Positions 10,886 to 53,953 of a stretch of 64,000 bases of DNA are shown one piece after another. The number at the start of each line of letters is the position of its first letter. Position 1 is the first letter of the stretch. Location of the stretch: NCBI GenBank assembly GCA_018830005.1, contig JAHJTE010000003.1:135674-199673 (forward strand), read 5' to 3'. Source of the DNA: Candidatus Omnitrophota bacterium (lineage in GTDB: Bacteria > Omnitrophota > Gorgyraeia > JAHJTE01). The notes beneath the pieces were generated by a model. That model made no database searches. It saw only the letters and a program-made list of their open reading frames with translations, and was not told the origin of the DNA. The position numbers and the translations under genes were made by a program.

Positions 10886-11227
10886 TCATTTCCTGCAACA
10901 GAGCTTTTTCCTGTTAGCTTTCTCTGCCCTCTTTAAATCATCAATCATTGCCTTGTCATCATTCAGCCACTGACTAAGCATAGCAAGCAGCTTCTTTGCA
11001 TAAAGATTCTTCGGGCTAACAAAATAGTTAGTCCAAAAACCGTCCTGTTCAGAAGCAACAAGGCCAGCACCCACCAACTTTTTAAGCTGTTTGGACACCG
11101 CAGGCTGAGAAACCCCAAGAACAAACGCAAGCTCACAAACACACATCTTACGCTTCTCAAGAAGCTTCAGAATCCTCACCCTGTTAACATCAGCCAACGC
11201 CTTAAAGATAGTATCCAAATCTTTCAT
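10886..11227 (-). CDS. arsR: ArsR/SmtB-family metalloregulator
   Basis: wHTH (VNRVRILKLL...CVCELAFVLGVSQPAVSKQLKKL) carrying the CVC metalloid-binding motif. Start taken at MKDLDTIF. Confidence 0.75.
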   Translation of the reverse strand: MKDLDTIFKALADVNRVRILKLLEKRKMCVCELAFVLGVSQPAVSKQLKKLVGAGLVASEQDGFWTNYFVSPKNLYAKKLLAMLSQWLNDDKAMIDDLKRAEKANRKKLCCRK

Positions 11228-11297
11228 AAATATACACCCTTTCACAACCAAATAACTAAACGGTTATATAAATCTTACTGTTTCCAACCCAAGAAGT

Positions 11298-11460
11298 CAA
11301 GAACAAAAAAGTTCGGATATTTGAATAAGGGGGGTCGATTCAGACAAAATCCGAACTCTGTATTTCTACTGCGAAAAACGCATTTTCCATATAAAAAAGC
11401 CCCAGCTACGATAAGTAACTGAGGCTATATCCGAAAAAAGTTCGGATTTTCAAATTGGCT
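11298..11460. promoter_or_regulatory. candidate operator: aaaagttcggat direct and inverted copies upstream of arsR
   Basis: agttcggat at about 11300 and 11437, and atccgaact at about 11354. They lie in the arsR upstream region. The same motif occurs at 6896. Confidence 0.3.
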
Positions 11461-12477: not shown

Positions 12478-12517
12478 CAAAAACCCACTGCAATATATTA
12501 TATCACAGTGGGTTAGG
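12478..12517. repeat. 40-bp element, copy B (aacccactg...cagtgggtt hairpin)
   Basis: 35/40 identity to 361-400. Contains a 9-bp perfect inverted repeat. Confidence 0.6.
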
Positions 12518-12564: not shown

Positions 12565-12984
12565 GTGGGGCTCCGTTTGAAGTGGCTCCCCGAGCGAGAC
12601 TCGAAGCGAACAATAAGGCGTGTCGTAACTGATGAATTGCCATACCATTACAGATGGCACAATAAAACAAAAACTCTATTTCGGGGCAAAAAGCCGGATT
12701 TTATTCCAAGAGGCAAGATTGTTTCAAAGAAAGAACTGCGGCATTACAAGTATTTGCAGGAGTATAAAAACCCGATTAAGAAGGCGATGGGATTTCAGCG
12801 GATCATGCAGGAAGAAAACCTGAACCAAGGACAACTGGCAAAAAAAATGGGAATATCACGAGTAAGAATAACTCAAGTATTAAACCTGCTCAAGCTACCA
12901 CAAGAACAACAGACTTACGTTTTGGAATATGGTAAAAAAGAACAAATAACCGAAAGAATGTTAAGAGAATCTCCGAACCATTAA
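12565..12984 (+). CDS. ParB-like HTH protein (truncated relative to full ParB)
   Basis: ENLNQGQLAKKMGISRVRITQVLNLLKLPQEQQ resembles the ParB/KorB HTH. The N-terminal ParB nuclease-like domain is absent. Confidence 0.4.
   Translation: MGLRLKWLPERDSKRTIRRVVTDELPYHYRWHNKTKTLFRGKKPDFIPRGKIVSKKELRHYKYLQEYKNPIKKAMGFQRIMQEENLNQGQLAKKMGISRVRITQVLNLLKLPQEQQTYVLEYGKKEQITERMLRESPNH
12583..12608. repeat. degenerate att-like copy of tRNA 3' end (tggctccccgagcgagactcgaagcg)
   Basis: About 75% identical to the tRNA-Asn 3' segment tggctcccccgcgaggactcgaacc, in the same orientation. Confidence 0.45.
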
Positions 12985-15428
12985 TTATTCGTTGGCTTCA
13001 TATTCATCGCCAATAGTACAGATTTTAAATAATTATTTCTTCCGTAACATAACAATAGTCTATTTACTGTATTAACGCTAAATCCCTGATCAGGAATATT
13101 AAATCTGATTTTCCCCAAAAATCTATAACTCTGTTGAGCACTATCAATATTTTGTTTATCCATCCATTGCCAATCTTTTTGAGCTTGATTATATGAAGAA
13201 TCCAACTCCGACAATAATGTGGATATAATCTGATTTGCTTTTGTTTGATCCGTTTCATTCCCCACAGAAAGAAATATTTTATGTAAAACTTGCCTTAAAT
13301 CCCTCAATTTTCCAGCTTTTCTCATTTCTAAACAAATAAAAGAATTAGCCTCAAATGTAAATTCATAAGCACTCATCTTTTTCGATAAATTTTCCCACAA
13401 GCATTGCCCCTTATTAGAAACTTTCAATATTTCTTCCCATCGGAACTGATTATCAGTATATAAAATTGCCCCTGTTAATTGAGCAAGAAAGAAACCCAAC
13501 TCAAAATTTGGCGTTAAATGAGATATAAGTATCTGCCCTGCTCCCTTTTTCCCAACAGACGGCTGCAATAAGGCAAGAGGATCTGCCTTGCGCTGCTGTT
13601 TCATATATTCTAATACTTTTTCTGTATCGTCTTCAGACAAATCAGGCAAAGCTTTTGTAATATTATGCCTCAAGCTTTCCTCCGGCAACCCACTCATCAT
13701 CCTTTTTATATCATCCATACAAAGATCCTTCATTGGTGCCATTTGATCATCGCTCAACTTAAGTCCTTTAAGGCGAGATTGAGCCATTTCCCATATTTGC
13801 TTTTGAAGTTGAAGATTCAAAGAACAAGGATCAGGAATCAAATTAATGATTCCTTTTTCAATAAAAGGCATTAACTGCATAAATAACAATGCGTTTTTAA
13901 GTGTCTCTTGTTTATATTGAGCAGGTGATTCAACAGGATTATATTCTGGTTTTATGTATGTGGGATTCATAAATGGGTTCATAACCAATATTTCATCAAA
14001 ATAAAGCGAATAACTAATAACATTTTGAAGAATTGTTCTCGGGTCAATCAGGCCAGCATAAAGAACCCTTGATACTCTTTTATCAGGCATTGGTAATAAC
14101 TCAATTATATTTGTCCCTTTAGGCCATAAACATTCAAATGCCTTATGAATATCTGCAACCTGCTTATCACTTAATTCGGCACGAATATCTTCCCATGTTT
14201 TTCCCCGTGATAATCCCAAAATATTCATCAACATGTTAAAAAACATTAAATTCCGTTCTCTAATACTCCGCACATTAGTTATTGGCATCTCACCTGATTT
14301 CTTATCCCTACAGCATTTTTTGTATTTTTTCCCACTACCACAAATGCATTCATCATTAGCCCCGACTTTCTCCTTTCTTTCTGGCTTTTTTAGATATGAC
14401 AAATCACCTACAGTGCGACCATATGCATCTTGATAATGAGTTCTACCATCTTCATAACCAACATATATTTCCCCTCCAAAATGATGCAACTCATTCTTAG
14501 GTGGCATTAACACTCGCCCCAACTCCGACCACTCACATCTAATTTCTTTCTCAGGAAATAACCATTCTTTTTGGGCTGCGGCTACATATCTTCGTGCACG
14601 ACACTTTAAAATCAAATTTATTTTATTTACATCATTAGCCTCTATTTTACGCGAGCGTATCATTGCATCAATACGCGAAATCGTCGAATCAAAATGTCTC
14701 GCATTCGTCCTGTTCGAAAGTAAGTCTTGGCTATCCGAATCTTTTGCATATTCTAAATTTGTTAAAATAAGACAATGATTTAAGTCTAGAGGAAATATAG
14801 TCTGAGAACCCTTAAAAGAAATTAAAGGATCATCGGGGTACTTACAATGAGTAGAATCAGGCGGGCAAGCAGCATTATATATTGTCACAGGGTGATCAGT
14901 AATAATAAATTTTACATCTGAGTCTTCAGCAGACACAATTTCACGGGTTGCTTCAACCCACATCGTACAGTGCATTTGTCTTATATGCTGCATTTCAAGC
15001 AACAATTGAATCTTATTTATACCAGGATACTTTGTTTGAAGCCAATTCAATCCCTTTGGTGTTCGAATCTTTTGGGCATCTAAATATCCAAAGAACTCCT
15101 GGAAGGTTTTATGCATCGAAAGAAAATCGTTACTAATAAATGCCCGAATCGCAGCAAAACCAAATGTATCAATTTCACCAAAAAGATACTTTTCAATCTC
15201 ATCATTAATTAAACCAAAAAAGAATGTCGTGTATAAATCCTTTTCACAAAAACACTGTGACGGCGACCACCAGTGATAACTGTTAAAGACAACTTCTTTG
15301 CCATTAGGAAGAATCTTTTTATCTGGATGTAAATTTAGATAACAAAGCTTACTCCCCTTTGATAATAAAAATCTCTTTTGATACCATTCTGGTACATAAT
15401 GATTTTTTCTAGTTACAGATTTTTGCAT
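12981..15428 (-). CDS. DUF4238-like N-terminal domain + SEC-C metal-binding motif protein (815 aa)
   Basis: N-terminal NHYVPEWYQKRF matches the HYVPQFYLRNF signature I associate with DUF4238. CICGSGKKYKKCC is a canonical SEC-C motif. Confidence 0.5.
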   Translation of the reverse strand: MQKSVTRKNHYVPEWYQKRFLLSKGSKLCYLNLHPDKKILPNGKEVVFNSYHWWSPSQCFCEKDLYTTFFFGLINDEIEKYLFGEIDTFGFAAIRAFISNDFLSMHKTFQEFFGYLDAQKIRTPKGLNWLQTKYPGINKIQLLLEMQHIRQMHCTMWVEATREIVSAEDSDVKFIITDHPVTIYNAACPPDSTHCKYPDDPLISFKGSQTIFPLDLNHCLILTNLEYAKDSDSQDLLSNRTNARHFDSTISRIDAMIRSRKIEANDVNKINLILKCRARRYVAAAQKEWLFPEKEIRCEWSELGRVLMPPKNELHHFGGEIYVGYEDGRTHYQDAYGRTVGDLSYLKKPERKEKVGANDECICGSGKKYKKCCRDKKSGEMPITNVRSIRERNLMFFNMLMNILGLSRGKTWEDIRAELSDKQVADIHKAFECLWPKGTNIIELLPMPDKRVSRVLYAGLIDPRTILQNVISYSLYFDEILVMNPFMNPTYIKPEYNPVESPAQYKQETLKNALLFMQLMPFIEKGIINLIPDPCSLNLQLQKQIWEMAQSRLKGLKLSDDQMAPMKDLCMDDIKRMMSGLPEESLRHNITKALPDLSEDDTEKVLEYMKQQRKADPLALLQPSVGKKGAGQILISHLTPNFELGFFLAQLTGAILYTDNQFRWEEILKVSNKGQCLWENLSKKMSAYEFTFEANSFICLEMRKAGKLRDLRQVLHKIFLSVGNETDQTKANQIISTLLSELDSSYNQAQKDWQWMDKQNIDSAQQSYRFLGKIRFNIPDQGFSVNTVNRLLLCYGRNNYLKSVLLAMNMKPTNN

Positions 15429-15609
15429 TACTTTCTAATATCTCCTGACAATGCCGCATCCAAATTCTTGCACAGATATCAATAATTTCTTCCCTTCTCT
15501 CTTCTTGTGATAAATGAGAACTAGGATTCATTGGATTAGGGTTATCTGGATCAGCAGGTATAAATGTAAGCTTTATGTTGTCCCAATCAATTTTATTTCT
15601 TCCCGCCAC
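15409..15609 (-). CDS. small hypothetical protein (operon partner, overlaps DUF4238 gene start)
   Basis: 66 aa. 20-nt overlap with the downstream gene. Confidence 0.3.
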   Translation of the reverse strand: MAGRNKIDWDNIKLTFIPADPDNPNPMNPSSHLSQEERREEIIDICARIWMRHCQEILESNAKICN

Positions 15610-15790
15610 CTTTCACCTCCCTTGTTTTTTCCTTTTTTAATATTGGCTCCAAAAGTTCGTCAGCATAAGGAAGTAACAAGTCGACCTCTTTGGGAAGAAC
15701 GATGTCAGAAATATCACCTAAATTATCCGTTATAATCAATTCCTTCTTTTTCTTCAGCACAAGAAACCTCCTCAAACCCTTTTTCTTCAT
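15593..15790 (-). CDS. small hypothetical protein
   Basis: 65 aa. Overlaps the next gene. Confidence 0.25.
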   Translation of the reverse strand: MKKKGLRRFLVLKKKKELIITDNLGDISDIVLPKEVDLLLPYADELLEPILKKEKTREVKGGGKK

Positions 15791-15901
15791 TTATTTCCTT
15801 ATTATTGTAAAGATACACCGCTTTAGCTAACAAAGCACCAATCCGGTCAATACGTTCACTCATTGATAAATGCTCATACATAATTCTACTCCTGGATATA
15901 A

Positions 15902-16360
15902 TTACTTTTGAACCTTGTCAATTATCTTGTGCCACGCTTCAAGACAATCATTAACTTGAGATGATTTAATATTTAGTCCTTTCCAGCCATCCGGATATCT
16001 AATGCAAAGTTCCTCATCAATCTTAATTTCTTTATATCGCTTTTTTTCCTCAGAGACAAGTTTCTTCCAATCCTCAACGCCAATCACATAAAAATCTGGT
16101 CGATCTTTAAATTTTTTCTTCTCAAAATCAATAAGTACCAAGAGATCGTTCTCCCTAAAGACGCCACTCACTCCTGGCCATTCGCGACCTTGTTTCGCCT
16201 TAACCTGAATTCTTAACATTTTATAATCCGTTTCAACAAGAATATCTGTCCGCTTATGATGTCCCATAGTCAACTGTGCATAAATCCCTCGTTTACATAA
16301 TTCACTCGCGACAGAATATTCACCACTCAAGCCAAGAAACTCTTTGGATAATTTCTTCAT
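15902..16360 (-). CDS. hypothetical protein, possible PD-(D/E)xK-fold nuclease
   Basis: D-x(n)-E-x-K-like pattern (DILVET...IQVKAK). Weak call. Confidence 0.3.
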   Translation of the reverse strand: MKKLSKEFLGLSGEYSVASELCKRGIYAQLTMGHHKRTDILVETDYKMLRIQVKAKQGREWPGVSGVFRENDLLVLIDFEKKKFKDRPDFYVIGVEDWKKLVSEEKKRYKEIKIDEELCIRYPDGWKGLNIKSSQVNDCLEAWHKIIDKVQK

Positions 16361-16390
16361 ATCAATTCTTCTCCTTAAACATTCCCCATA

Positions 16391-17548
16391 CTATCTCTTC
16401 GTTGAATATTTCTTGTTTTTCCTCAACCAACCCATAGCTCTATACACATCTTTAATCCCAAGGAACCATTCTGCTAATAATTGTGTAGCTGACTCATCTT
16501 TCTCATCAGGAAAAGATTCATCCCATTTCTTTGCACAATCTCTAGCATTATCTCCAATACACCCCATATTGAATAATTCTCTTTTCACACATTCTAAGAA
16601 TACTAAATCAGCAACAATATGATAGTTAATCCATTTCTTGTCAGACACGTGATAACGTTGCAGCTTTGGCTCTATATGCTCGCCATGTACAATGCTATTT
16701 CGTAAATTATAGAAATCCCAAGCCCACCAGTAAAGTTTACTGCACCTGTGTTTCTTCCCCTTATTATCTGTTCTTGTTAGTTTAATAAATTCAGAACATT
16801 TTACCTGCTCATCAAGTTTCTCGGCTATCCAGCCTTTCTTATTAGGCACATTAGGAACCTGTAATAGAATTTCAAATGCCGTTGCCATCATAACAATTTT
16901 AGACAAAAAAGACACATCTTCATTTTGCACATGAGATAATCGAAACCATTCGAGACTTCTAAAAATTCGCTCTCTCACTTCAACCGAGACATTATTTTCA
17001 AACATTTTATTAAAACCGCTCATAAGTTCTTCGTTGGGCGATTTAAAGAATCCGCCAGTACTCCACGGTTTAGGAAAAGTAACTTCTCCCATTTCCCAAC
17101 CACCACTAAGCAAATTTCCTGCACGAACAGCAATATGATTATTGCCAGGAATAAAATTTTGAGTTATTAATTGAAATACTTCCGAACTTGATGGTCCCAT
17201 ACTTCGATTATTAGCGCATACAGCATTCTTTACTGTTGGAGCAATGGCACAAAAAGTAAGCATATTTACCGCATCCCTTAAATCGGAGTATTCTTTCTTG
17301 CTTAAACATCTGAAATTATTCTTCTTATAGGAACAGACTACAATCGTATCTACAGCTTTACCTTGATGATCTACATAAGAACTAAAATACCTTGTTAGAT
17401 GTTTCAACAAAGATTGGTTCTTAATCTTCGTATCAGCGTTTGTAAAAGACCAGAATAAGACAGGGCCAATTTGCAACTCATCCTTAAAATCCGCCCATGG
17501 CATAAATGATACTTGATGATATTTTTGTTTCTTTATTTTTGTACCCAT
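16391..17548 (-). CDS. hypothetical protein with HEPN-type Rx4HG motif (Abi-like?)
   Basis: YNLRNSIVHGEHI resembles the RNxxAHxE motif of Abi_2/HEPN proteins. Confidence 0.3.
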   Translation of the reverse strand: MGTKIKKQKYHQVSFMPWADFKDELQIGPVLFWSFTNADTKIKNQSLLKHLTRYFSSYVDHQGKAVDTIVVCSYKKNNFRCLSKKEYSDLRDAVNMLTFCAIAPTVKNAVCANNRSMGPSSSEVFQLITQNFIPGNNHIAVRAGNLLSGGWEMGEVTFPKPWSTGGFFKSPNEELMSGFNKMFENNVSVEVRERIFRSLEWFRLSHVQNEDVSFLSKIVMMATAFEILLQVPNVPNKKGWIAEKLDEQVKCSEFIKLTRTDNKGKKHRCSKLYWWAWDFYNLRNSIVHGEHIEPKLQRYHVSDKKWINYHIVADLVFLECVKRELFNMGCIGDNARDCAKKWDESFPDEKDESATQLLAEWFLGIKDVYRAMGWLRKNKKYSTKR

Positions 17549-17711: not shown

Positions 17712-17984
17712 TCAAACGTCATCATCAAGCTCACAGATAATTGCCTCAACTTTCTCCTCGGAAATTTCTATTTGGTAGTCGGGATGTTCTTCAGTTTTTT
17801 GCTGTTCTTCTTCCATGCGCTGCTTCTCATCAGTAAAATCTCTGTATTCCTCGTAATCCCTCACTCTCCGCACGCTTTTAATAGCCGCTGGGCTATTCAT
17901 CCTTCGCCTTACGGCATTCAAAGCACTGTTGATGTCTTTTGTACTCATTCTTCTCAGGTTTGGTATTTGACTCATGCATATCAC
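17712..17984 (-). CDS. small acidic hypothetical protein
   Basis: ORF only. Confidence 0.25.
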   Translation of the reverse strand: MICMSQIPNLRRMSTKDINSALNAVRRRMNSPAAIKSVRRVRDYEEYRDFTDEKQRMEEEQQKTEEHPDYQIEISEEKVEAIICELDDDV

Positions 17985-18032: not shown

Positions 18033-18383
18033 TCAGGAAGCCTTTAACCCCGGCTTAAAGTCATACATCCGCGTCTGGCTAATCTCACACTGCATTCTTT
18101 CCTCATCACAATAAAGCGACTTAGGCACTATGGTGAATTTGAACGCTTCCCTTACTCTGGGCAAGTTATCGTACACCGTAGACACCGGAATTCCTGTGCG
18201 CTTTGATATCTCTGTGAGAGTCATGCGGCTGTCTTCAAGAAGAAGAGGCACGATCTTCTTCATCATATGCATGCGCTCGCTAATAAACACCAGAGAGTGC
18301 GTGAATTGCCGTTCCTTCCTCACAAACTCAATCTCGCCCCTCAGGTACCCAACAGACCTTGCAATTCTTTCTTTGCGATTCAT
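18033..18383 (-). CDS. HTH transcriptional regulator (Lrp/AsnC-like HTH)
   Basis: LLEDSRMTLTEISKRTGIPVSTVYDNL. Confidence 0.4.
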   Translation of the reverse strand: MNRKERIARSVGYLRGEIEFVRKERQFTHSLVFISERMHMMKKIVPLLLEDSRMTLTEISKRTGIPVSTVYDNLPRVREAFKFTIVPKSLYCDEERMQCEISQTRMYDFKPGLKAS

Positions 18384-18715
18384 ACTCTCACCTTTTTCAT
18401 AGCCATCATAATTTTCTCGACGCCTTTTGCCTTTGTGGGCTCAAAATACAAATCCCTATCTACTTCAATACCGTTTGCGCTAAGCTTGCAAAGCTCCCTG
18501 AAGCTTATGTAGCCCCACTCAGCCATCTGGTAATCGTTGTTCAGAATAGCAAAGCCGAAAAGCAGCTCCTTTTCAGCATCGTACTCCGCGACATACCAGT
18601 CGCAGCCGCCCATGAAGAAATGCATGTGAATAACCTTTTCTTCCGCAGCTACGTCTTCTGTCTCATAGAATTTCGGTATTTTCTCAAGTTCCTTATCTGA
18701 TGGTTCATTCCACAT
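18380..18715 (-). CDS. DUF2958-like protein, paralog 1
   Basis: MWNEP...IHMHFFMGGCDWYVAEYD...FGFAILNND.QMAEWGY. Paralogous to 22802-23146. Confidence 0.45.
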   Translation of the reverse strand: MWNEPSDKELEKIPKFYETEDVAAEEKVIHMHFFMGGCDWYVAEYDAEKELLFGFAILNNDYQMAEWGYISFRELCKLSANGIEVDRDLYFEPTKAKGVEKIMMAMKKVRV

Positions 18716-18784
18716 CTGGCACCGCCTCCGGGATAATTTGTTTCCCGAAGGAAAAGAAACAAATTAGCACCAAACCCAACAGAT

Positions 18785-18800
18785 TCTTTTCAGTGCAAAA
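18785..18800 (+). promoter_or_regulatory. TTTTCAGTGYAAA motif copy 1 (~37 nt upstream of ATG 18837, no SD)
   Basis: cttttcagtgcaaaac. Confidence 0.4.
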
Positions 18801-18836
18801 CTTAAAAGCAACCTTGTCCCCACTAATCAATAGAAA

Positions 18837-20069: not shown

Positions 20070-20149
20070 ATGTCTGTAGATGTCAGCTCCCTATTTAATA
20101 ATTATGTTTATGGGCAGATTTTGAACTCTTGCGCTCCTCCTTCTTCAGT

Positions 20150-20165
20150 ATCTTTTCAGTGTAAA
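20150..20165 (+). promoter_or_regulatory. TTTTCAGTGYAAA motif copy 2 (34 nt upstream of ATG 20199)
   Basis: tcttttcagtgtaaac. Confidence 0.4.
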
Positions 20166-20198
20166 CCATTTATACCCTTCTGCTACTACTTTGATTTA

Positions 20199-21623
20199 AT
20201 GACAGATACAACTCTCACAGACGAGCTTCTTCTCAAGCTTGAGCCGGAATGGGGCAGCAAAAAAATAGAAAGCCTCAAGCTAATATACGCGCTTGGTGAC
20301 GAAGACCGAAAAACCAGAATAGAAAAAATCCTGAACATTTCATCCAGAAAACTCCTGAATGACAACCTCCTCAACACCAACGTTCTGCTGCCGCCGGTAA
20401 CAAAAGAAGAATGCGAAGGAAAAAAAGAAGTCTTTGCCGGAACAGTCTGCTACGGCAAAAATGGCGAGGACAAGCATAGGGAGCTATATCCCTTGTATCT
20501 CAATTTCGAAGACGTAAAAAACCACACACTCATAACAGGCCTCTCAGGCACAGGAAAAACCACGCTCGGCTACAACCTCCTAATAGAACTCTCACAAAAA
20601 GGCAAACGCTGCATCGTATTTGATTGGGACAGAACATGGCGAAACCTACTCTCACTCGACAAAAAAGAGTATCCATTCACTGAGAAAATAAAGGTCTACA
20701 CGATAGGGCGAAGCGACATTATGCCGTTTAGCTGGAACATGTTCTTCAACCCGCCACCAAACGTGAAATTCTCAAACTGGCTCGGCATATCATCCAGCAA
20801 ACCACTCCAAAAAAGCCTGTATTCCGGGCAAGGTGTAAGCGACTATCTCGAAAACGAAGCAGAACAGCTCATGGACGCATACCAAAACGGCGTACTCAAA
20901 ATGCTCCCAAACATCGAAGATATGAAAATCCGCATACAGGCAAAATACGCCCAAGCACGACAGCTCCTCTGGAAACAAAGCACAGAAAGAATCCTAAAAG
21001 AACTCACACGAGAAAGCATGAAAGAAGTATTCGGCTCACGACAGCCCATAGACATATCAAAAGAAATCCTTGAAAGAGACGGCATAACAATCATAGAAAT
21101 GGACATAGAAACACCCGAACACCTAAGAGTCCTGTTCCAGGAACTGGTCCTCAACTACTTCATGCTTTACTACCTGCACAAAGGCGAAGCAGAAAAAGAA
21201 GAACTCCGCACAGTAGTATTTCTCGAAGAATTCCCAAACATGCTACCCAAATCTAAAATTGAAACGCAAACCGGAGGAGAAATCATCAAAATGCTCTTCA
21301 AAGAAGCCAGAAAATTCGGGCTGGGAATCGTAGCCATAGCACAAGAAAGCTCAGAACTCCCAAACTATGTTACAGCAAACTGCAAAATCCAGGCACACTT
21401 CGCCTGCCAAACCAAGCGAGACATAGAAGCCACAGCGGGAAGTCTTTTTCTAAAGAAACATGAGATTCCTTATATGGATCTCATCTGGCAGGGTGAAGCA
21501 ATAATGAAAGTCAAAGGCAGAGTCAAAAACTGCCTCGTAAAAATCCCACTCGCTCCAATTAAAGAAAAAATCACTGACGAACAGCTCAAAGAGATGAAAG
21601 AAAAATGGCAGCCCCAAAGCTAA
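20199..21623 (+). CDS. FtsK/HerA-superfamily P-loop ATPase (conjugative DNA-translocase-like), paralog 1
   Basis: Walker A LITGLSGTGKTTL, and a Walker B region (VVFLEEF). Start moved to MTDTTL because the upstream 43 codons look noncoding. Homologous to 50166-52289. Confidence 0.55.
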   Translation: MTDTTLTDELLLKLEPEWGSKKIESLKLIYALGDEDRKTRIEKILNISSRKLLNDNLLNTNVLLPPVTKEECEGKKEVFAGTVCYGKNGEDKHRELYPLYLNFEDVKNHTLITGLSGTGKTTLGYNLLIELSQKGKRCIVFDWDRTWRNLLSLDKKEYPFTEKIKVYTIGRSDIMPFSWNMFFNPPPNVKFSNWLGISSSKPLQKSLYSGQGVSDYLENEAEQLMDAYQNGVLKMLPNIEDMKIRIQAKYAQARQLLWKQSTERILKELTRESMKEVFGSRQPIDISKEILERDGITIIEMDIETPEHLRVLFQELVLNYFMLYYLHKGEAEKEELRTVVFLEEFPNMLPKSKIETQTGGEIIKMLFKEARKFGLGIVAIAQESSELPNYVTANCKIQAHFACQTKRDIEATAGSLFLKKHEIPYMDLIWQGEAIMKVKGRVKNCLVKIPLAPIKEKITDEQLKEMKEKWQPQS

Positions 21624-21970: not shown

Positions 21971-22184
21971 GGGGCACACATAAATACTTTAGTATTTATA
22001 TATCGAAAATGTGAAGCTCTCATCCTGATTGTTGCTTTTTTTTGTTAGCCTGCGGTTCTCCTGCCAGGGAGAAAAAACGCCTTTGAGGCGTAGCCGAGAA
22101 GTGGTTTTAGCATGGCAAGCCTTTGCGAGCAAGGCGAGCAATGGTAACAAAAAAACGATCCTTGCCACCCCATCCCTGCCAGTG

Positions 22185-22200
22185 CCTTTTCAGTGCAAGC
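22185..22200 (+). promoter_or_regulatory. TTTTCAGTGYAAA motif copy 3
   Basis: ccttttcagtgcaagc. Followed by about 200 nt of leader with CCTGCCAG copies and hairpin/U-runs. Confidence 0.35.
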
Positions 22201-22411
22201 ATTAAATACCTGCCAGATATTACCTGCCAGTAATTAACCAAATTCATACACGCTGACGAAAAGCACAAATTCTGAGAAGCCAAGCGAAAAGGCATCTCAC
22301 AGCGAACAGAAATCTTGAAGAGGGAGCACGCTCCTGTTTTTACGCGAAGGTTTTAACAGGAGAACCCCTAAAAAAATGCTCCCTCCTCTTTTTTGAAAGG
22401 AGGTGATTGTT

Positions 22412-22801: not shown

Positions 22802-23146
22802 ATGTGGAACAAACCAACAAGCAAAGACCTCGAGCAAATCCCCGCCTTTTACTCAACGGAAAGCACACCGCTAAAAGACAAAATCATACACGCCCACTTC
22901 TTCATAGGCGGATGCGACTGGTACGCAACAGAATACGATCCAAAGGATGAACTCTTCTTCGGGTTTGCCATACTCAACAACGACCTCGAAATGGCAGAGT
23001 GGGGATACTTCAGCCTCAAAGAGTTAAGCGATTTGAAAGTGTCTTTTCTTGAAGTTGACAGAGACCTCCACTGGAACCCAACAAAAGCACAGAACATAGA
23101 AAAGATTGCGGAAGCACAGGGATGGCAAACAGTAAGCACCACATAA
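22802..23146 (+). CDS. DUF2958-like protein, paralog 2
   Basis: MWNKP...IHAHFFIGGCDWYATEYD...FGFAILNNDLEMAEWGY. Confidence 0.45.
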   Translation: MWNKPTSKDLEQIPAFYSTESTPLKDKIIHAHFFIGGCDWYATEYDPKDELFFGFAILNNDLEMAEWGYFSLKELSDLKVSFLEVDRDLHWNPTKAQNIEKIAEAQGWQTVSTT

Positions 23147-25735: not shown

Positions 25736-25908
25736 TTTATTCTTTCATATTTCATAAGATTTTGGTATCTTTTCAATGATTCCCTACATTTTAATAGTTT
25801 ACACCTACCAACACACCAAAACAACACTATTCTTTTCATTGCAAAACAAGTGCAAATAATAAATACTTTTCTGCAACTACTTCAGAATAGATTCAACGAA
25901 AGGGGGTA

Positions 25909-27226: not shown

Positions 27227-27270
27227 GAACAACAATCAACAACACCAAAACATAACCGTTTTTCTTAGTA

Positions 27271-27286
27271 CCTTTTCAGTGTAAAC
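27271..27286 (+). promoter_or_regulatory. TTTTCAGTGYAAA motif copy 4
   Basis: ccttttcagtgtaaac, about 30 nt upstream of the 27318 start. Confidence 0.4.
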
Positions 27287-27317
27287 TTCTTAAACAGCTA
27301 ACCCCATAACTGATTCT

Positions 27318-27755: not shown

Positions 27756-27931
27756 ACAAACCAAAGATATTTATACTTAAACAACTCTTGTTTTCACACG
27801 CAAACAACTTTTTTCAATAGCACATTGAACCTTCTCAACTATGGGCTCAGAGCTCAGCCGGAGACTGGTTTAGTGTTCTATTGGTTGTTAAACAATATTT
27901 TTATATTGTGCGTTACTGTGAGGTGATGAAT

Positions 27932-29359
27932 ATGGCTGAAGACGATATTTATGGGAACAAAAGGCATTATGAGAATTTTAAGCAAAATATTAGGTATCTT
28001 ACTCTGCCACCTGATGTTTATCTTAAGGTAGTGCTGAGAGATCCAATAATCCCGTTAAGAGGTTCCAGAAGAAAATATTATTGTCTTAACAAGGCGAACC
28101 TCTCTTATTTTTACCAGATGGTTGAGTACTTGGAGGCAAAAGACATGTCTTATATCGCAAGGATGAGAATTCTTCGGGATATCCTGTTCATCTGCCACCA
28201 TGTCCCTAAAAACCTTGAAGAATGCACCAGGGAAGACATAAACAAGCTAATGGCACACGCCCACCGCAGTTATAAAACACCTTCCAGCAAAAACCACTTC
28301 ATCAAACACCTGAGATACATCTGGAAAATCCTATTTCCAGAAAAGGACTCGCACGGCAGAACAGAGGATACTATCACACCTTATCCCGTTAGGCACGTCT
28401 CTCCAAGCATCGATAAAAGCAGACAAAAAATACGCAAGGACAAATTCACAACACAAGAACTCCAAAACATAATCAGCTATTTCGGAAAAGACCCAAGAAT
28501 GCAAGCATACCTGACACTAGCCCTAGAAAGCCTCGGCAGGCCGCAAGAACTGCTTTACCTCCGAATAGGCAACGTCGAGATGCACGACAACTATGCCAAA
28601 ATCTTTCTTTCCGAACACGGCAAAGAAGGAACAGGCATACTTCAATGCATAGACAGCTACCCATACCTCCTTAAATGGCTTAACCAACATCCGCTAAAGA
28701 ACAACCCCCAAGCATTCCTCTTTGTAAACACGGGAACAACCAACACACTCGAACAATTCAAGCCAACAAACATAAACAAAATGCTGGCAAAAGCCGTTAA
28801 GGACCTCCGAATAAACAAGCCAATAACATGCTATAGCCTAAAAAGAAACGGCGTAACCCTAAGAAGGCTTAGAGGAGAAAGCGACATGGAAATACAGCAC
28901 GCCGCCAGATGGACAAGCACGCAAGTCCTGAAAACATACGACCAAAGCAGCCAAAACGAAGCCCTAAAGCTGCAACTCCAAAAAAGAGGCCTGATACCAG
29001 TAGCCACCGACAATAACCCTCTCACAAACAAGAAATGCGCCTTCTGCAACACCGTAGCCGGCAGCACAGACATCACCTGCCCGCAATGCAAGCGCCCACT
29101 AGACAGGAAACACGTAATCGAGGAAACAAAAAAAGACGAGCAAATACAAAACCTAAAAGAAACAGTAAGCCAATTCACCAAGCAAATATCCACCATGAAA
29201 CAAGAAATACTACAAGACCTGGCAAAAGAAATACTACACAATCAGCAAGGCTACAGGCCGGACAACCGGGAAGACACGGGAAACTTTTCATCCAAGAGCT
29301 CCTCAAAAACACCCGTCAGCGACTTACCCTTAGAAACCTCGCGCTTCAAAGCCCTATAA
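27932..29359 (+). CDS. tyrosine-type site-specific recombinase with C-terminal zinc ribbon
   Basis: C-terminal H..R...Y-like block (HAARWTSTQVLKTYD) and CAFCN...CPQC. Start at MAEDD with SD gaggtga. Confidence 0.5.
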   Translation: MAEDDIYGNKRHYENFKQNIRYLTLPPDVYLKVVLRDPIIPLRGSRRKYYCLNKANLSYFYQMVEYLEAKDMSYIARMRILRDILFICHHVPKNLEECTREDINKLMAHAHRSYKTPSSKNHFIKHLRYIWKILFPEKDSHGRTEDTITPYPVRHVSPSIDKSRQKIRKDKFTTQELQNIISYFGKDPRMQAYLTLALESLGRPQELLYLRIGNVEMHDNYAKIFLSEHGKEGTGILQCIDSYPYLLKWLNQHPLKNNPQAFLFVNTGTTNTLEQFKPTNINKMLAKAVKDLRINKPITCYSLKRNGVTLRRLRGESDMEIQHAARWTSTQVLKTYDQSSQNEALKLQLQKRGLIPVATDNNPLTNKKCAFCNTVAGSTDITCPQCKRPLDRKHVIEETKKDEQIQNLKETVSQFTKQISTMKQEILQDLAKEILHNQQGYRPDNREDTGNFSSKSSSKTPVSDLPLETSRFKAL

Positions 29360-29885
29360 TGGCCAGACTTAACACGAAAAGCAACCCACACCTTAGCCAT
29401 AAGGCACACCTCGCTCAGAAACCACATAGTTAGCTCTGGAATAAATCAGGCGAAAGAACAGCAGCCTCTTCTCGCGCGGCAAATAAGATAAGTTTGCCTT
29501 AACAAAATCATCCAAGCTACTAAAGCCTTGGCTGCGCACAATTCCTTCCAAACAATCGTTATTCATCTATCCAGAAGTAGTAACTACTTTTAATATAAGC
29601 TTTGCACTGACAACGCACTTAATCCTTCAGTGCATCTTCTATGAGCTTGACAACGTCAAGCTGGCCCCTGCCGCGCTCAGTAAGCTCGCCCTTACGTTCG
29701 AGTTCCTCACAGTCAGCCTTGACCCGCTCAACCACAGCCATAACTTTTTCTAGCTTCGACTCCATAGTAAATCACCTCGCGAGAACACCCCTTTTTTTCC
29801 AAAAGAACACAATTAATATCCTGAATAACCACCAAATATATAAGCCTTATGCCCCCAATTTATCCCGCAAGTTCTTCAGCACTGA

Positions 29886-29899
29886 TTCAGTGTAAATCT
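29886..29899 (+). promoter_or_regulatory. TTTTCAGTGYAAA motif copy 5 (ttcagtgtaaatct)
   Basis: 35 nt upstream of ATG 29934. Confidence 0.35.
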
Positions 29900-30207: not shown

Positions 30208-31734
30208 TCAATAGTTCTTGTAGAATGCTTCCGCGGTGAATTTCATGAATTCGTCTTTTTTATCAATACTTCTGCTTATTACTTGCCAAGGTTCCAATCT
30301 GGCTATTTCTGTTTGAAGGTCCTTAGCGGTTTTTGTGTTGCACCCGAGGATTTCTTGGACGGATGATGACGAAACTCCCTCGCATTGAAAAATAAAGGCA
30401 AATTCTAGGAGTTCTTGGAAATTAAAGAATTTTTGTTGGTAGTCGTTTGGTGATTGGCTGGCGAAGAATACGACGACCCCTTTTGATCTGCCTTCTCGGA
30501 TTATTTTTTCAAGGAAGATATTTTTTTGGCCCAGATAATTATGTGCTTCATCAAATACTAGGATCGTTCTTATAGTTCGCCTATTGTTTTCGACGGGGCT
30601 ATCAGGCATGGTTGTCATTTCTTTGTATAGTCTTTCTATTACTAGGTATGCCACTAATTCCTTAAGCACTGGCATTGTGTGGACGTCTATTAGTAATGTT
30701 CGGTCTGTCAGTCTTTCTATTGGTGGAATTTCTGATCCGTGGGACCAGAATAGGTCAAAGTCAGATAGGTCTCTTAACACTTCTATAAGACTGTCATCAC
30801 GTTTTCCTTGTTCTTCATAGGTGATGCGGGCTATTTCGTAGACATCTCTAAAGTCTGGGTATGGTTTATCGGTGTTGGCTCTTCGGGAATAAGCTGCGCG
30901 GATTGTTTCTGTTAAAGCGCCTTTTTGGACTACTCCTAATTTAGAGTTTATGGAAGCAAAACTTTCTGCTTTTTCTCTTGCGGATACATTTATTGTTTGT
31001 TCGTCATATGCCGGCAGAATAAATGGATTTATGGGTAATGTTTGGGCTCCCTGCAGCAAACGATAAAGCTGAACCTTCGAATTGTCTAGGAACTTCTGGT
31101 TGTCTCCAACATCACCCTTATAATCAAAATAAATAAAGTTTGTTTGGAAATTTGACTGTAAACGAATATCTGTAAGAATCTTTAGAAGAAACTGAGTCTT
31201 CCCAACCCCAGGCTTCCCCATAATCGCCAAGTGAGAATTCGCATGAATATTTGTGTTGTTTAACTCTATAACAACATCAGATTTTTGCAATAGCGTCTTT
31301 CCAAGCAGAATTTCGAATCCCTTCCCAAGCATTTCCTTCCTTCCTTTAAACTCGACTTTGGAAACTAATTTCTTTATTAGCAGGTCTGCATTATTTCCGC
31401 ATTCTTCGAATATTCTTTGAAGCTTGATACTGCCATTATCTATATGGTTCTTCACAATTGATTTATTTGAGTAAAAATTTTCGTCGTTTATATCTGCTCG
31501 ATGATATACGGAACTTATTAATGTCTTAAGAAACACCTCATCAGCACCGATAAAGGTTGGTCGTTTAATTTCTGCACCGCTAAAATCTGTGTTTTCAGCG
31601 ACTTTTACTCCATCTTCTGTCAGAGAAAGCATGAACGCTATTCTAGCTAGTATATATTTCTCTAATTTTGTTTCCAGACGTAACGCACTCAATATCTCGT
31701 CTGTATCTCTTGATGTGTATAGTCTATCGGCCAT
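30208..31734 (-). CDS. HerA/FtsK-like (DUF87-type) P-loop ATPase
   Basis: Walker A AIMGKPGVGKTQFL. Walker B VFDEAHNYLG. FASQSP motif. Confidence 0.55.
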   Translation of the reverse strand: MADRLYTSRDTDEILSALRLETKLEKYILARIAFMLSLTEDGVKVAENTDFSGAEIKRPTFIGADEVFLKTLISSVYHRADINDENFYSNKSIVKNHIDNGSIKLQRIFEECGNNADLLIKKLVSKVEFKGRKEMLGKGFEILLGKTLLQKSDVVIELNNTNIHANSHLAIMGKPGVGKTQFLLKILTDIRLQSNFQTNFIYFDYKGDVGDNQKFLDNSKVQLYRLLQGAQTLPINPFILPAYDEQTINVSAREKAESFASINSKLGVVQKGALTETIRAAYSRRANTDKPYPDFRDVYEIARITYEEQGKRDDSLIEVLRDLSDFDLFWSHGSEIPPIERLTDRTLLIDVHTMPVLKELVAYLVIERLYKEMTTMPDSPVENNRRTIRTILVFDEAHNYLGQKNIFLEKIIREGRSKGVVVFFASQSPNDYQQKFFNFQELLEFAFIFQCEGVSSSSVQEILGCNTKTAKDLQTEIARLEPWQVISRSIDKKDEFMKFTAEAFYKNY

Positions 31735-31736
31735 GC

Positions 31737-33725
31737 TTAGTCCTCCCAGAAATAGCCGGTTCTAACGGTTGTAAGTTCTTGCTTAGAATCGAACTCTAGT
31801 TTTGCTGCTCCTGCAAGATGATTTGAGAGATTTCGATAATAATTCTTGTCTATTTCTGTATCCGTTGAAAGAATAATAACTTGTTCCCCTGCATTTGGGA
31901 AGTAGTTATTGACAATATTATCTCTGTGAGTACTATCTAGCCTTGATAGAGGAGTGTCAATTATGATAGGAAGCTTTAGTTGGCTTGTTTGGGCCAATCC
32001 CCACAGTAACGAAACGGCAAATACTTCTTTTTCTCCTGCAGAAAGTCCTGACTTCCTTATTTCATGGCCATTACGGTCAATAATTCTGATTTCATAGGTT
32101 TTGTCATCTATATTAATGTCTTTTATCAATCCGCCTTTACTGGATAGCAGCTTATACATTTCAAAGGTTTTCTCTTGAAGCAAGTGTACTTTATTTTTCC
32201 TTAGACGAACGACAAACTGGTTCAAAAGATTGGAGATAGCGTCACATTCTGAAATAAAATCTGCCTTGTCCTTTGAAAGGTGGTGTTTTTCATAAAGTTT
32301 CTCGATTTCTATTTCGATATCACGGATGCTATGGTCAATAGTCAATATCTCGTCTTCAATCATTCTAAGCTGCTCTGTTTTTCTCCCGATTTGAATGGAA
32401 CAATTTTCTATCTGGTCCTGAAGCATAGCAAATAATTCCCGTTCTGATTCGCTTGCCCCTTTCCCTCGACAAGAGCCTTCAATTTCTTTTATTTGAATTG
32501 TCAACTCCCTCTTTTCTTCTAAGAGAGGAGCAACCAAGAAGACATCACTTTTTTCTAGAGTTTCCATCTGATTCATCACTTTTGCAGAATCTCTTTCGGA
32601 GAGGCTAAGAACCTTTTCTACATGCGTCGAATCTCCTTCGCTAAGCAGTCGTTCAATGCGTCGTTCTAATTCCTTCATTTTCTCGATTGAAAGTTTTTCG
32701 CGATATATAGGTTCAGGTTCTTCAACTACTCGCACAATTTTCTTGGCAAGCTCTCCTGCGTGTTCACGAATTGCTTCGCCGTGATTAGTGTTGCGCTCTT
32801 TTTCAATTTGGGCCCTTACTTTATCGAAAAGTTTTCCAGCAAGTCCGAATGGCAGCGCTGATTCACATAGATGTTTTATTTCGCTATCTAGTTGGCTTAA
32901 CCTATTTGCTACCTGAATACGCCTTTTTTCATTCTGCCTGATAACATCTTTTGATTCTGGAGTTTCATGAAAGGCTGCTTGAAAACGTTTTTTTGCTTCT
33001 TCCTGTTGTTCAGTGAATTCTACAATTTCAGCCTTAATTTCGCCTTTTTCCGTACACTTTTTTTCTCGTTTGCTTTTTTCCCGTTTCAATTCACTTTGCT
33101 TGAATTCGAGGTCTGCATCAGAAATCTCGATGAAGCCTTTGCGTTCTTCTTGCTTAAGATAGGCCACATCACTTGCAAGCCTATTGATGTATTGGATGCC
33201 TAATGCCGCTTCTAAAGAAGTTTGTAAGCGAACTTCGGAATGGTCATCAGAAGCAATCTCTTGTATTTTTTCTCCATCAAAAAAGAAGAATTGAGTTATT
33301 CCTGGTGGAATCGCGGCACGAATATATTCTTGCCAAATATCTTTATTTTGCACGGTAACGCGTTTCCCGTCTTTTACTACGACGAGCCGTTCCGCTATGT
33401 CTTTTGATTTTGGATCTTCCACTGTCCCGGCTGACCATGTCCTTTTAATGATTAGTTCTGAACCGTCATCTTCTTCTATGGCGAGCTCAAAAGAAACTGC
33501 CGTGTTGTTCTTTGCTTTCTCTTTTCGGTTTATACAACGATATATTTCTTCGTTTTTTGCCCCATATAGGCAATAATTGACAGCCTCCATGATAGCCGTC
33601 TTACCCGACCCATTCATTCCTCCTATTAAAAAAATACTTTTTCCTTCTTCATTGTCTGGAAAAAGAATTTCTGTAGGAAATTGAAACGACTTATAGTTCT
33701 CAATTATTAACTTGCGTAGTTTCAT
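31737..33725 (-). CDS. SMC-like ABC ATPase (DndD/SbcC-like)
   Basis: N-terminal Walker A IGGMNGSGKTAIMEAV. Long coiled coil. Signature LSAGEKEVFAVSLL. Walker B LPIIIDTPLSRLD. 662 aa. Confidence 0.6.
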   Translation of the reverse strand: MKLRKLIIENYKSFQFPTEILFPDNEEGKSIFLIGGMNGSGKTAIMEAVNYCLYGAKNEEIYRCINRKEKAKNNTAVSFELAIEEDDGSELIIKRTWSAGTVEDPKSKDIAERLVVVKDGKRVTVQNKDIWQEYIRAAIPPGITQFFFFDGEKIQEIASDDHSEVRLQTSLEAALGIQYINRLASDVAYLKQEERKGFIEISDADLEFKQSELKREKSKREKKCTEKGEIKAEIVEFTEQQEEAKKRFQAAFHETPESKDVIRQNEKRRIQVANRLSQLDSEIKHLCESALPFGLAGKLFDKVRAQIEKERNTNHGEAIREHAGELAKKIVRVVEEPEPIYREKLSIEKMKELERRIERLLSEGDSTHVEKVLSLSERDSAKVMNQMETLEKSDVFLVAPLLEEKRELTIQIKEIEGSCRGKGASESERELFAMLQDQIENCSIQIGRKTEQLRMIEDEILTIDHSIRDIEIEIEKLYEKHHLSKDKADFISECDAISNLLNQFVVRLRKNKVHLLQEKTFEMYKLLSSKGGLIKDINIDDKTYEIRIIDRNGHEIRKSGLSAGEKEVFAVSLLWGLAQTSQLKLPIIIDTPLSRLDSTHRDNIVNNYFPNAGEQVIILSTDTEIDKNYYRNLSNHLAGAAKLEFDSKQELTTVRTGYFWED

Positions 33726-34360
33726 AGATGTTCCTCGCTAAGTTCCCAAATTCCTCGAGGCGAATTGTTCTTTAGTGTGCCATCTTGCGTCATTCGATAT
33801 CGTTCCCAATTAGTGTTATTCTGCCATATGTAATCATTTGTTGCTTTACGCCATTCGAGGTCTCGTGGCAAGAGCTTGCCGTCTAACATTTTTTCAATCT
33901 CTTCTCGGACCTTTCGTCCAGGTGCCGAGCCTCCCAATCTTTTCAAGGCTTTGATAATGAGTTCGCGAAGCACAGCTCCCTCAGTTTTAGGTGCACGTGA
34001 GTGAGTGCGTTTTTTCTTGCCCCTATTGTTTAGCGAATCACTTCCTCCTATGCGCTGCCTCAACTCGTTAACAATATCTTCAAATTCGTCAGCAAGATGA
34101 CCAAATAATTTGTCTGCATTATTGGGGCCGCTTAAGGCCGCTATCAACCTAGACTTTTCTGAACGAAGCGCATCTGGTACAGCTACATTTGCCTTTTCAA
34201 GTCGCTTAATGGTCTTGGTAATCTCCTGTAGTTGCTTCTCACGCTCTCTTATTTCACTTTTTTGCACGCTACTATCAAGATGCTTAATTACTTCTCGGCA
34301 AAGCTTTACGAGCAAAGTATGGTCTTTCAAATAAGGGGTAACATCTGGAGTAACGCTCAT
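33722..34360 (-). CDS. coiled-coil protein with C-terminal Mrr_N-like winged helix
   Basis: LRELIIKALKRLGGSAPGRKVREEIEKML...SPRGIWELSEE follows the Mrr_N pattern. Confidence 0.45.
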   Translation of the reverse strand: MSVTPDVTPYLKDHTLLVKLCREVIKHLDSSVQKSEIREREKQLQEITKTIKRLEKANVAVPDALRSEKSRLIAALSGPNNADKLFGHLADEFEDIVNELRQRIGGSDSLNNRGKKKRTHSRAPKTEGAVLRELIIKALKRLGGSAPGRKVREEIEKMLDGKLLPRDLEWRKATNDYIWQNNTNWERYRMTQDGTLKNNSPRGIWELSEEHL

Positions 34361-34551
34361 TAGCCGGCACCTTCGTTTGTCTCAAAATTGGTCTTCATAA
34401 TCTCACGCAAAGCATCGTAAATCCCTGCTCTGCGATCTTTAAATTCGTGTTCCTGAACGGTCTCAAGGAGCTTGATTACTTTATCAAAATTGACCTCGTG
34501 CTGACGGCAAAGGTCCTGCAAGAGTGTTTTGTCTTCATTTGTTAGATTCAT
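34360..34551 (-). CDS. small hypothetical protein (operon member)
   Basis: 63 aa. Start/stop overlaps on both sides. Confidence 0.3.
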   Translation of the reverse strand: MNLTNEDKTLLQDLCRQHEVNFDKVIKLLETVQEHEFKDRRAGIYDALREIMKTNFETNEGAG

Positions 34552-38710: not shown

Positions 38711-38829
38711 AAATCAACCTCTTTGTATATCGTGTGTTATATTTACTCGCCTCTCACTTATTAATAGCTATAAATTATTTCAGCATTAATAAACTTTGGC
38801 AGTGTTTGTAGCCTTTCTTAATATTTCTT

Positions 38830-52289: not shown

Positions 52290-52558
52290 TAGATGACAAA
52301 AAATTACAGGACGAGCTGCTCGAACTGCTGACAGAACAGCAAATACCAGAAGAACTCAGATCCCACCCGCCACCATATGACTGGAAAAGCCTTCTCCGTC
52401 CCCTGGGAAAATTTGTGCTGGTAATCATCGGTATCTGCGCAGCCCCTTTTGTGGCGTCAATCATCATAGCAATAGTAACGCTCTGCCCCGTCATAGTTCC
52501 AATCTGGATACTGATGTACATTGCACAACAAAAAACCAATCCCACCAACAGGAGATAA
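52286..52558 (+). CDS. small membrane protein
   Basis: GTG start overlapping the previous stop (GTGA). 2 TM. Confidence 0.3.
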   Translation: MIDDKKLQDELLELLTEQQIPEELRSHPPPYDWKSLLRPLGKFVLVIIGICAAPFVASIIIAIVTLCPVIVPIWILMYIAQQKTNPTNRR

Positions 52559-52565
52559 AAAAATC

Positions 52566-53396: not shown

Positions 53397-53430
53397 TAAT
53401 TTTCAACACTTAAACAATAAGGAGGACGTT

Positions 53431-53685
53431 ATGGCAAAACCACAAAAGCTGACAGAAGCAGAACAAGAACTGGTAGTATTTCTTGCAAATTGTCCCGAAC
53501 CTGAGTCTATACACGGCATAGCCGACATTTACCACCTATCGACAGAACAAACGTTAAACATGCTTGCAAGATTAAGTAAGAGTTTGCGGATTTACAGAAA
53601 TAAAAAGCTCGAAATCAGTCTTGCAATTGACCCTGACGCAATCACGAATCAAGAAAACGAAATACCAACAGACGAAACTCTATAA
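53431..53685 (+). CDS. small hypothetical protein
   Basis: SD aaggagg. Confidence 0.3.
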   Translation: MAKPQKLTEAEQELVVFLANCPEPESIHGIADIYHLSTEQTLNMLARLSKSLRIYRNKKLEISLAIDPDAITNQENEIPTDETL

Positions 53686-53714
53686 ATCCAAAACCGAAAA
53701 AAGGGGCCGGAACA

Positions 53715-53900: not shown

Positions 53901-53953
53901 CAAAATGTCTTATTTGGACTACCATATGATACAGTTAATAACAGGAAAGAATT

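Follow-up and report, generated by a model that had tools for sequence, protein, structure and literature searches.

The 64,000-nucleotide stretch analyzed here (hereafter the window; positions 135,674 to 199,673, forward strand, of contig JAHJTE010000003.1, assembly GCA_018830005.1, from a Candidatus Omnitrophota metagenome-assembled genome) raises the question of whether an 815-residue protein encoded on its minus strand (12981–15428) acts together with the small and nuclease-like genes next to it or forms a functional unit on its own. The protein is composed of a DUF4238 domain, a SEC-C knuckle, and a large C-terminal domain (CTD). A first-pass annotation, made from the DNA sequence alone, had placed it in an operon with two very small, overlapping open reading frames (ORFs), flanked by nuclease-like and HEPN-motif genes, and all of the ORFs that it named (encoding 815, 66, 65, 152, and 385 residues) are indeed present on the minus strand. 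We find that the 815-residue gene is best described, from the sequence comparisons that follow, as a widespread, mobile, single-gene defense candidate in which DUF4238 is combined with an undescribed SEC-C–CTD module. We lean slightly toward the view that it is a horizontally transferred accessory gene, complete in itself, whose product is a one-protein immunity factor of the abortive-infection type directed against phages or mobile elements, with its neighbors as separate cargo.

What, then, does the 815-residue protein contain? The first-pass calls of a DUF4238 and a SEC-C domain both hold. Residues 8 to 287 (14568–15407, minus strand) match PF14022 with an E value of 1.3e-12 and a score of 48.2 bits (cut-off, 27 bits), with positions 1 to 280 of the 281-position model covered, and the structural model described below suggests that the domain extends to about residue 345. 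The NHYVPEWYQKRF signature comprises residues 9 to 20, and two DUF4238 motifs, NHYVPxWYQ and FIxTDHPV, are near-invariant in the family. The SEC-C zinc knuckle follows at residues 358 to 374 (14307–14357, minus strand) and matches PF02810 with an E value of 4.9e-7 (29.9 bits versus a cut-off of 20.4). All four Cys (C361, C363, C372, and C373) are present in our protein and nearly invariant (≥90%) across the family, and a profile search of PDB sequences matches the knuckle to the metal-binding peptides of SecA and YchJ. The CTD (residues 385–815; 12984–14276, minus strand) belongs to an undescribed family that is also found without DUF4238. Searches of Pfam, NCBIfam, PHROGs, and PADLOC return no match for it; among 45 family members scanned against Pfam, this region yields nothing consistent, and profiles built for the entire family and for the CTD family alone recover only the SEC-C peptide among PDB sequences. 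No housekeeping function was found for this domain. In the same Pfam scan, DUF4238 is kept by all 45 homologs and SEC-C by 44.

The extent of the gene matters here, since the NCBI annotation (MBU2541697.1, “SEC-C domain-containing protein”) is only 560 residues long and starts at Met256, which removes the DUF4238 domain altogether. Gene calls from JGI, ENA, and Logan give the full 815 residues, and more than 100 full-length homologs begin with an identical MxITRxNHYVP sequence, from which we take the start codon of the longer gene to be correct. An AlphaFold2 model calculated from an 80-sequence alignment has a predicted local distance difference test (pLDDT) score of 90.8 and a predicted template modeling (pTM) score of 0.91; all three parts of the protein pack as a single confident body, with model confidence of 86 to 92 over residues 351 to 390, the SEC-C region.

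How widely is this architecture distributed? A homolog search yielded 2,111 clusters, including more than 120 full-length relatives at 46 to 65% identity, and the alignment shows conservation from end to end, with a mean column identity of 53%. Relatives are found in 537 of 185,579 genomes, sampled as one genome per species (about 0.3%), that belong to about a dozen phyla overall, including Omnitrophota, the candidate phyla radiation (CPR; Moraniibacteriota), Acidobacteriota, Nitrospirota, Chloroflexota, Bacteroidota, Campylobacterota, Kiritimatiellota, and the Alpha-, Beta-, Gamma-, and Deltaproteobacteria. A spread this sporadic and this wide is typical of horizontally transferred cargo. Fourteen plasmids in PLSDB, seven of which are conjugative, carry a relative, always labeled “DUF4238 domain-containing protein.”

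Whether the gene works alone or with partners was approached through its neighbors elsewhere, by clustering all flanking ORFs within 3.5 kb at about 82 loci that encode a relative. The largest resulting neighbor cluster spans only five loci, and none of the window's own neighbors falls into any cluster; four metagenomic loci, the contig of the closest relative, and three annotated plasmid regions likewise share no common neighbor. The lack of a conserved neighbor over these about 85 loci indicates that the 815-residue gene is a single-gene module. The copies on annotated plasmids are monocistronic and are preceded by gaps of 240 nucleotides or more. These data bear directly on the operon interpretation, according to which the small ORFs would serve as antitoxins or regulators and would act, together with a PD-(D/E)xK nuclease and a HEPN RNase, alongside the DUF4238 protein in a multigene abortive-infection system. 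The layout in the window has the appearance of such a system: five ORFs are co-directional, with gaps of 30 and 20 nucleotides, and the two small upstream ORFs named in the first-pass annotation overlap each other by 17 nucleotides, while the 66-residue one overlaps the main gene by 20 nucleotides. Moreover, a strong ribosome-binding site precedes the 66-residue ORF, which also appears in the NCBI annotation, and codon usage is gene-like in the 52- and 65-residue ORFs. However, none of these neighbor genes stands beside any of the about 85 relatives, the families of the 385- and 152-residue proteins each occur without the other genes, and the monocistronic plasmid copies point in the same direction; a multigene system of this kind is therefore very improbable. 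Of the proposed operon, only the tight co-directional spacing survives, and the assignment of the small ORFs, nuclease, and HEPN genes as partners of the 815-residue protein does not. The related proposal of a defense island is reasonable gene by gene but not as a joint operon.

Is the CTD found only in this context? An exhaustive phmmer search with residues 385 to 815 against 1.84 billion representative sequences matched 666 representative clusters, 183 of them with E values below 1e-30. Mapping hidden Markov models (HMMs) of the three parts of the protein onto the best 147 of these matches, with entries from our own family excluded, reveals four arrangements. The first is the DUF4238–SEC-C–CTD order of about 780 to 860 residues. 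The second is a shorter protein of about 450 to 510 residues, in which SEC-C occupies residues ∼5 to 25 and is followed directly by the CTD; there are about 45 such stand-alone SEC-C–CTD proteins, with Pfam SEC-C confirmed in P0280, P0304, and P0343, and in one case this form adjoins genes for a Dam methylase, AbiEii, and MqsA. The third, of about 825 to 863 residues, lacks SEC-C and carries a mutually homologous first ∼380 residues, for which neither Pfam nor HMM nor hhalign comparison shows homology to DUF4238; one copy is found on a contig with TraN, SLT, and ParM-like genes (locus L111). The fourth comprises at least one further N terminus (P0341). One additional protein, P0271, has the order SEC-C–DUF4238–CTD.

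Neither a profile of the ∼380-residue alternative N terminus nor the P0341 N terminus finds a match among PDB sequences. Invariant residues of the ∼380-residue module (P0336, P0342, P0376, and P0380) include D8, E38, D256, and D273; a PIN-like reading of this module, which no tool supports, and a nucleoside-phosphorylase-like reading of the P0341 N terminus were considered from motif appearance only and are not claimed. Among the stand-alone SEC-C–CTD proteins, about 15 of 45 (P0280, P0335, P0274, P0285, and others) have a Gly/Ala-rich hydrophobic segment at residues ∼420 to 455, which is absent from the DUF4238-fused forms, where a β-hairpin occupies the equivalent position. This segment hints at a membrane-active variant of the SEC-C–CTD proteins. 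Across the wide CTD family, complete or near invariance is limited to Y457, Y476, D478, and R712 and a number of Pro, Gly, and Trp residues, a pattern that would suit a scaffolding or binding role more than that of a classic enzyme.

A constant CTD behind interchangeable N-terminal modules is, by analogy, what modular immune proteins look like. A larger proposal, which we offer tentatively and consider possible but short of probable, is that SEC-C and the 430-residue CTD form a new and widespread immune scaffold, of a fold not present in the PDB and with interchangeable N-terminal modules (DUF4238, the ∼380-residue family, at least one more, or none at all); DUF4238–SEC-C–CTD would then be one branch of an unrecognized, modular, single-protein defense family carried on plasmids and integrative elements in many phyla. 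In the 815-residue protein, two modules that each also exist alone, the N-terminal DUF4238 domain and the SEC-C knuckle with its 430-residue CTD, would divide the labor, one recognizing an infection cue and the other executing the response. We prefer an arrangement in which the CTD with SEC-C would serve as a constant scaffold for sensing or regulation and DUF4238 would be the swappable effector, because the N-terminal domain in front of the CTD varies from protein to protein and because the conservation of the CTD fits a scaffold better than an enzyme. In the alternative arrangement, DUF4238 would sense and the CTD would execute. On our reading, the small ORFs and the PD-(D/E)xK-like and HEPN-like genes are separate cargo of the same low-GC (guanine plus cytosine) patch of an integrative element and not components of one system.

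How does this protein compare with characterized defense systems? The closest point of reference is a 309-residue, DUF4238-only protein encoded in a P2-like prophage hotspot of E. coli, which confers strong resistance to phage T7 (PMC9122126). This validated protein (Rousset et al. 2022; E. coli TA007, pFR101), a distant relative of ours, corresponds to PADLOC “DUF4238-Pers” PDLC03000, with 718 bits, and a DUF4238 system is listed among the DefenseFinder systems (bioRxiv 10.1101/2023.09.13.557551). The 815-residue protein likewise matches Pfam DUF4238 over the full model and, like the Rousset system, is encoded by a single gene on a mobile element with no conserved partner; by inspection, the two proteins have in common the patterns H-[HY]-[FV]-x-x-x-Y-x-K-x-F and [FI]-I-T-[SD]-[DH]-x-P-V. 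In contrast to the Rousset protein, which consists of DUF4238 only, our protein adds SEC-C and the 430-residue CTD and derives from Omnitrophota instead of E. coli.

Two further systems offer partial parallels. DUF4238 is among the additional domains reported for newly validated TIR defense systems of E. coli (PMC11350192), so that there too DUF4238 is accompanied by a second domain in validated defense; the partner is a TIR NADase instead of SEC-C–CTD, and we liken the two by description only. The TIR system shows, by analogy, a modular reuse of DUF4238 in immunity. The second is Rugutis (pUCCL633_059), an Abi-like single-gene system of 359 residues from a lactococcal plasmid (PMC11381338, PMC13064643), whose reported trigger is the phage large terminase. 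Rugutis resembles the stand-alone SEC-C–CTD relatives in layout only, with an N-terminal SEC-C followed by a confidently predicted fold, and it is a single plasmid-borne gene that lacks DUF4238. A tblastn search of plasmids with a 366-residue SEC-C–CTD member matched no Lactococcus plasmid. PADLOC itself returns only SEC-C-level matches for the 815-residue protein, to the E1-E2, E2, and PDC-S12 models.

Where relatives of the 815-residue gene reside bears on whether defense is the correct function at all. The closest relative adjoins NYN, Schlafen/AlbA_2, and lambda Ea47 genes, HNH_5 and DUF488 lie beside a relative at another locus, and AbiEi, AbiH, HipA, Fic, Cas1, TniQ, and four integrases are among the nearest neighbors of other relatives. 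On the conjugative plasmid pAsa4b, the relative adjoins traN, and a Klebsiella relative has a DUF3258 gene and an IS3 transposase nearby. The integrases, TniQ, and IS3 that adjoin relatives, the conjugative plasmids, and the TraN, SLT, and ParM-like genes near the alternative-N-terminus form would also be in keeping with an accessory role on mobile elements other than phage defense, for instance in competition or exclusion between elements, as an addiction toxin, or in the establishment of a conjugative element, and so would the finding that none of the 50,697 phage genomes searched encodes a family member. We judge this role unlikely, although it overlaps with a defensive one because defense genes are commonly carried on mobile elements: many chromosomal copies are near defense-type or toxin–antitoxin genes with no conjugation genes nearby, and the sole functional data on DUF4238 are those on phage defense (PMC9122126).

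Many immediate neighbors of relatives elsewhere are ordinary metabolic genes, and the SEC-C knuckle is closest to the metal-binding tails of SecA and YchJ. Both observations would suit a cellular role unrelated to conflict, either as a SecA/SecB- or ribosome-associated factor tethered through SEC-C or as a metabolic enzyme. Such a role is nonetheless highly improbable, given a family that is present in so few species genomes, scattered over phyla and devoid of a conserved neighborhood, and a gene that is carried on a mobile element in DNA of low local GC content; furthermore, SEC-C occurs in defense proteins as well, namely in the PADLOC models named above and in Rugutis (PMC11381338).

The absence from phage genomes and the metabolic neighbors are two of several points that weigh against a defensive function. 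PDLC03000 finds no match in either the N-terminal domain or the CTD of the 815-residue protein even at E ≤10, and hhalign of the family profile against the Rousset protein aligns only ∼44 N-terminal columns with 27% probability; on these comparisons, the 815-residue protein is a member of Pfam DUF4238 and not of the defined DUF4238 defense system. Foldseek searches with the 815-residue model return best E values of 1.7 in the PDB and 0.57 in BFVD, and in these two databases no catalytic fold emerges for either module. The few invariant polar residues of the CTD would make a weak case for an enzyme, and which module senses and which acts is something we infer purely from domain swapping.

What are the genes upstream? 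A 473-nucleotide stretch between the 152- and 815-residue genes holds three overlapping small ORFs, all on the minus strand. The 66-residue ORF (15409–15609; hypothetical KJ593_07325) has a GTG start and a GGGAGGTG ribosome-binding site; the 65-residue ORF (15593–15790) is rich in Lys and Glu and of low complexity, and an alternative 52-residue ORF (15723–15881; hypothetical KJ593_07335), also Lys/Glu-rich and with an AGGAG ribosome-binding site, overlaps it in another frame. Codon usage, gene-like in these last two, is ambiguous for the 66-residue ORF. The exact sequence of the 65-residue ORF is absent from the protein collection, and none of the examined relatives of the 815-residue gene has a comparable small ORF upstream. 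A homolog search with the three ORFs concatenated also found nothing, a result of little weight because the same search missed the database entries of the 52- and 66-residue ORFs themselves; negatives from this word-indexed method are best treated as weak for very short proteins. Within the 473-nucleotide leader, Rfam finds no match and predicted RNA folding is no better than that of shuffled sequence (z of +0.99). The small ORFs could be either orphan genes that belong to the element or ORFs present by chance in a 5′ leader; they are not a conserved part of the 815-residue system. Two other readings were set aside: that the three small ORFs are a decayed gene, as nothing similar was found, and that one of them is a type II antitoxin of the 815-residue protein, for which no conserved adjacency is seen among the relatives examined.

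The two larger genes beyond this leader are those said in the first-pass annotation to flank the 815-residue gene. The identities proposed for them are reasonable, the 152-residue protein being a plausible PD-(D/E)xK protein and the 385-residue protein a credible divergent Apea-like HEPN protein, but both genes are upstream (5′), and the 815-residue gene is not flanked by them. The 152-residue protein (15902–16360, minus strand) matches PDDEXK_5 with 24.6 bits, below the cut-off of 26.1, over its N-terminal third only, and phrog_5018 with an E value of 3e-6. Its 13 relatives, all metagenomic, keep E14, D39, and Q52-x-K54 where inspected, with ExK in one of them; they have no common neighbor, and no relatives are found on plasmids or in phages. 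It is plausibly a small PD-(D/E)xK protein that forms an independent, stand-alone module. A pairing of the 152- and 385-residue genes was considered and rejected, as the two never co-occur elsewhere.

The 385-residue protein (16391–17548, minus strand), with a predicted Apea-like HEPN C-terminal half, has 223 homologs, none of which carries a Pfam domain at threshold. Its LRNSIVHGE sequence corresponds to residues 282 to 290, and R283-N-S-I-V-H288 (16685–16702, minus strand) constitutes an Rx4H candidate HEPN catalytic motif; R283, H288, and G289 are invariant in 66 homologs. Weak matches to HEPN_Apea are found in 15 of these 66 family members and to RiboL-PSP in five, and one homolog is labeled “Apea-like HEPN” by JGI. 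The structural model (pLDDT 92.8) has a β-rich N-terminal half and a helical C-terminal half, and Foldseek finds no match for it in the PDB. As in the Apea-like and RiboL-PSP HEPN families (PF18739 and PF18735), the invariant Rx4H (RNxxxH) motif is located in the helical C-terminal half, and the protein stands alone in toxin–antitoxin and defense contexts: relatives stand alone among PIN, ParE, YoeB, and MazE toxin–antitoxin genes or beside a ThsB-TIR gene. Unlike Apea-like HEPN proteins, the 385-residue protein in the window itself scores nothing against any HEPN model, and it adds a β-rich N-terminal domain of about 170 residues. It is probably a HEPN RNase module in its own right, separate from the 815-residue gene. 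One homolog, P0227, carries PF11867, the C-terminal domain of the type I restriction enzyme HsdR, which suggests that some members of this family may be embedded in or fused to type I restriction-modification loci.

On what kind of element, then, do these genes travel? The 12.9- to 18.7-kb region of the minus strand is one co-directional array that begins with a DUF2958 gene (18380–18715) and a gene for a winged helix-turn-helix (wHTH) regulator (18033–18383), continues through a 90-residue ORF (17712–17984), and ends with the 815-residue gene. Between 13 and 18 kb, the GC content is 34 to 37%, versus roughly 40 to 46% on both sides. Beyond the array are genes for a HerA/TrwB-like P-loop ATPase (20070–21623, plus strand; DUF87 and TrwB_AAD_bind matches) and a tyrosine integrase (27881–29359, plus strand; Phage_integrase, E value of 2e-9), with a second DUF2958 gene between them (22802–23146). 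This gene content is that of a putative integrative element and, with the low GC content, upholds the mobile-element setting proposed in the first-pass annotation, but the ends of the element were not found: no direct repeat of at least 10 nucleotides is common to 11.2–12.6 kb and 29.3–30.3 kb, and no tRNA gene is present.

The plus-strand genes of the putative element are associated with a motif of ∼25 to 30 nucleotides (core GTAYCTTTTCAGTGYAAA), of which six plus-strand copies (18775–18809, 20141–20175, 22181–22209, 25765–25778, 27261–27295, and 29872–29896) are mostly located just 5′ of these genes, with the second copy falling just within the ATPase ORF. The motif may be an element-specific promoter or operator. 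On the other side of the array, a convergent, plus-strand ORF of 139 residues with a ParB-type HTH (12565–12984; HTH_ParB, E value of 1.7e-12) overlaps the stop end of the 815-residue gene by its final four nucleotides. A perfect 15-bp inverted repeat (12482–12514) lies between this ORF and a 264-residue, membrane-anchored ORF, and overlaps a sigma-70-like promoter (11/12; extended −10 element) directed into the 264-residue gene; the repeat may serve as an operator or as a bidirectional terminator. Further along, two copies (11305–11326 and 11434–11455) of a 22-nucleotide direct repeat (AAAAAAGTTCGGATWTTYRAAT), spaced by 129 nucleotides, are positioned upstream of an ArsR-family gene (10886–11251) and may be a regulator-binding site.

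Two other regions of the window carry genes of a defense or mobile-element type. The first is a second defense-type island on the minus strand (30208–40398) that encodes a DndE–HerA fusion (508 residues), an SMC/AAA_23 ATPase (662 residues), an Mrr_N protein (212 residues), a type I S-like subunit (462 residues), an HSDR_N_2 and N6_Mtase fusion (924 residues), and a MORC-like HATPase_c_3 protein (522 residues). The second, on the plus strand (50166–55606), bears signs of another mobile element, with an FtsK/TrwB-like ATPase that has a Top1-type zinc ribbon (50166–52289) and a large serine recombinase (53954–55606).

For the biology of the family, the finding means that DUF4238, an experimentally validated defense domain of no known mechanism, also exists in a far larger and very widespread architecture, whose relatives span hundreds of species and include copies on conjugative plasmids. 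This architecture is likely missed by current defense finders, because PADLOC, one of the checks proposed in the first-pass annotation, does not call the 815-residue protein. The natural domain swaps, the confident structural model, and the sharply conserved motifs provide handles on DUF4238 function, and the full-length gene corrects a shortened public annotation that hides the DUF4238 domain. Should the protein turn out not to be defensive, it would still represent a large, conserved, and mobile protein family.

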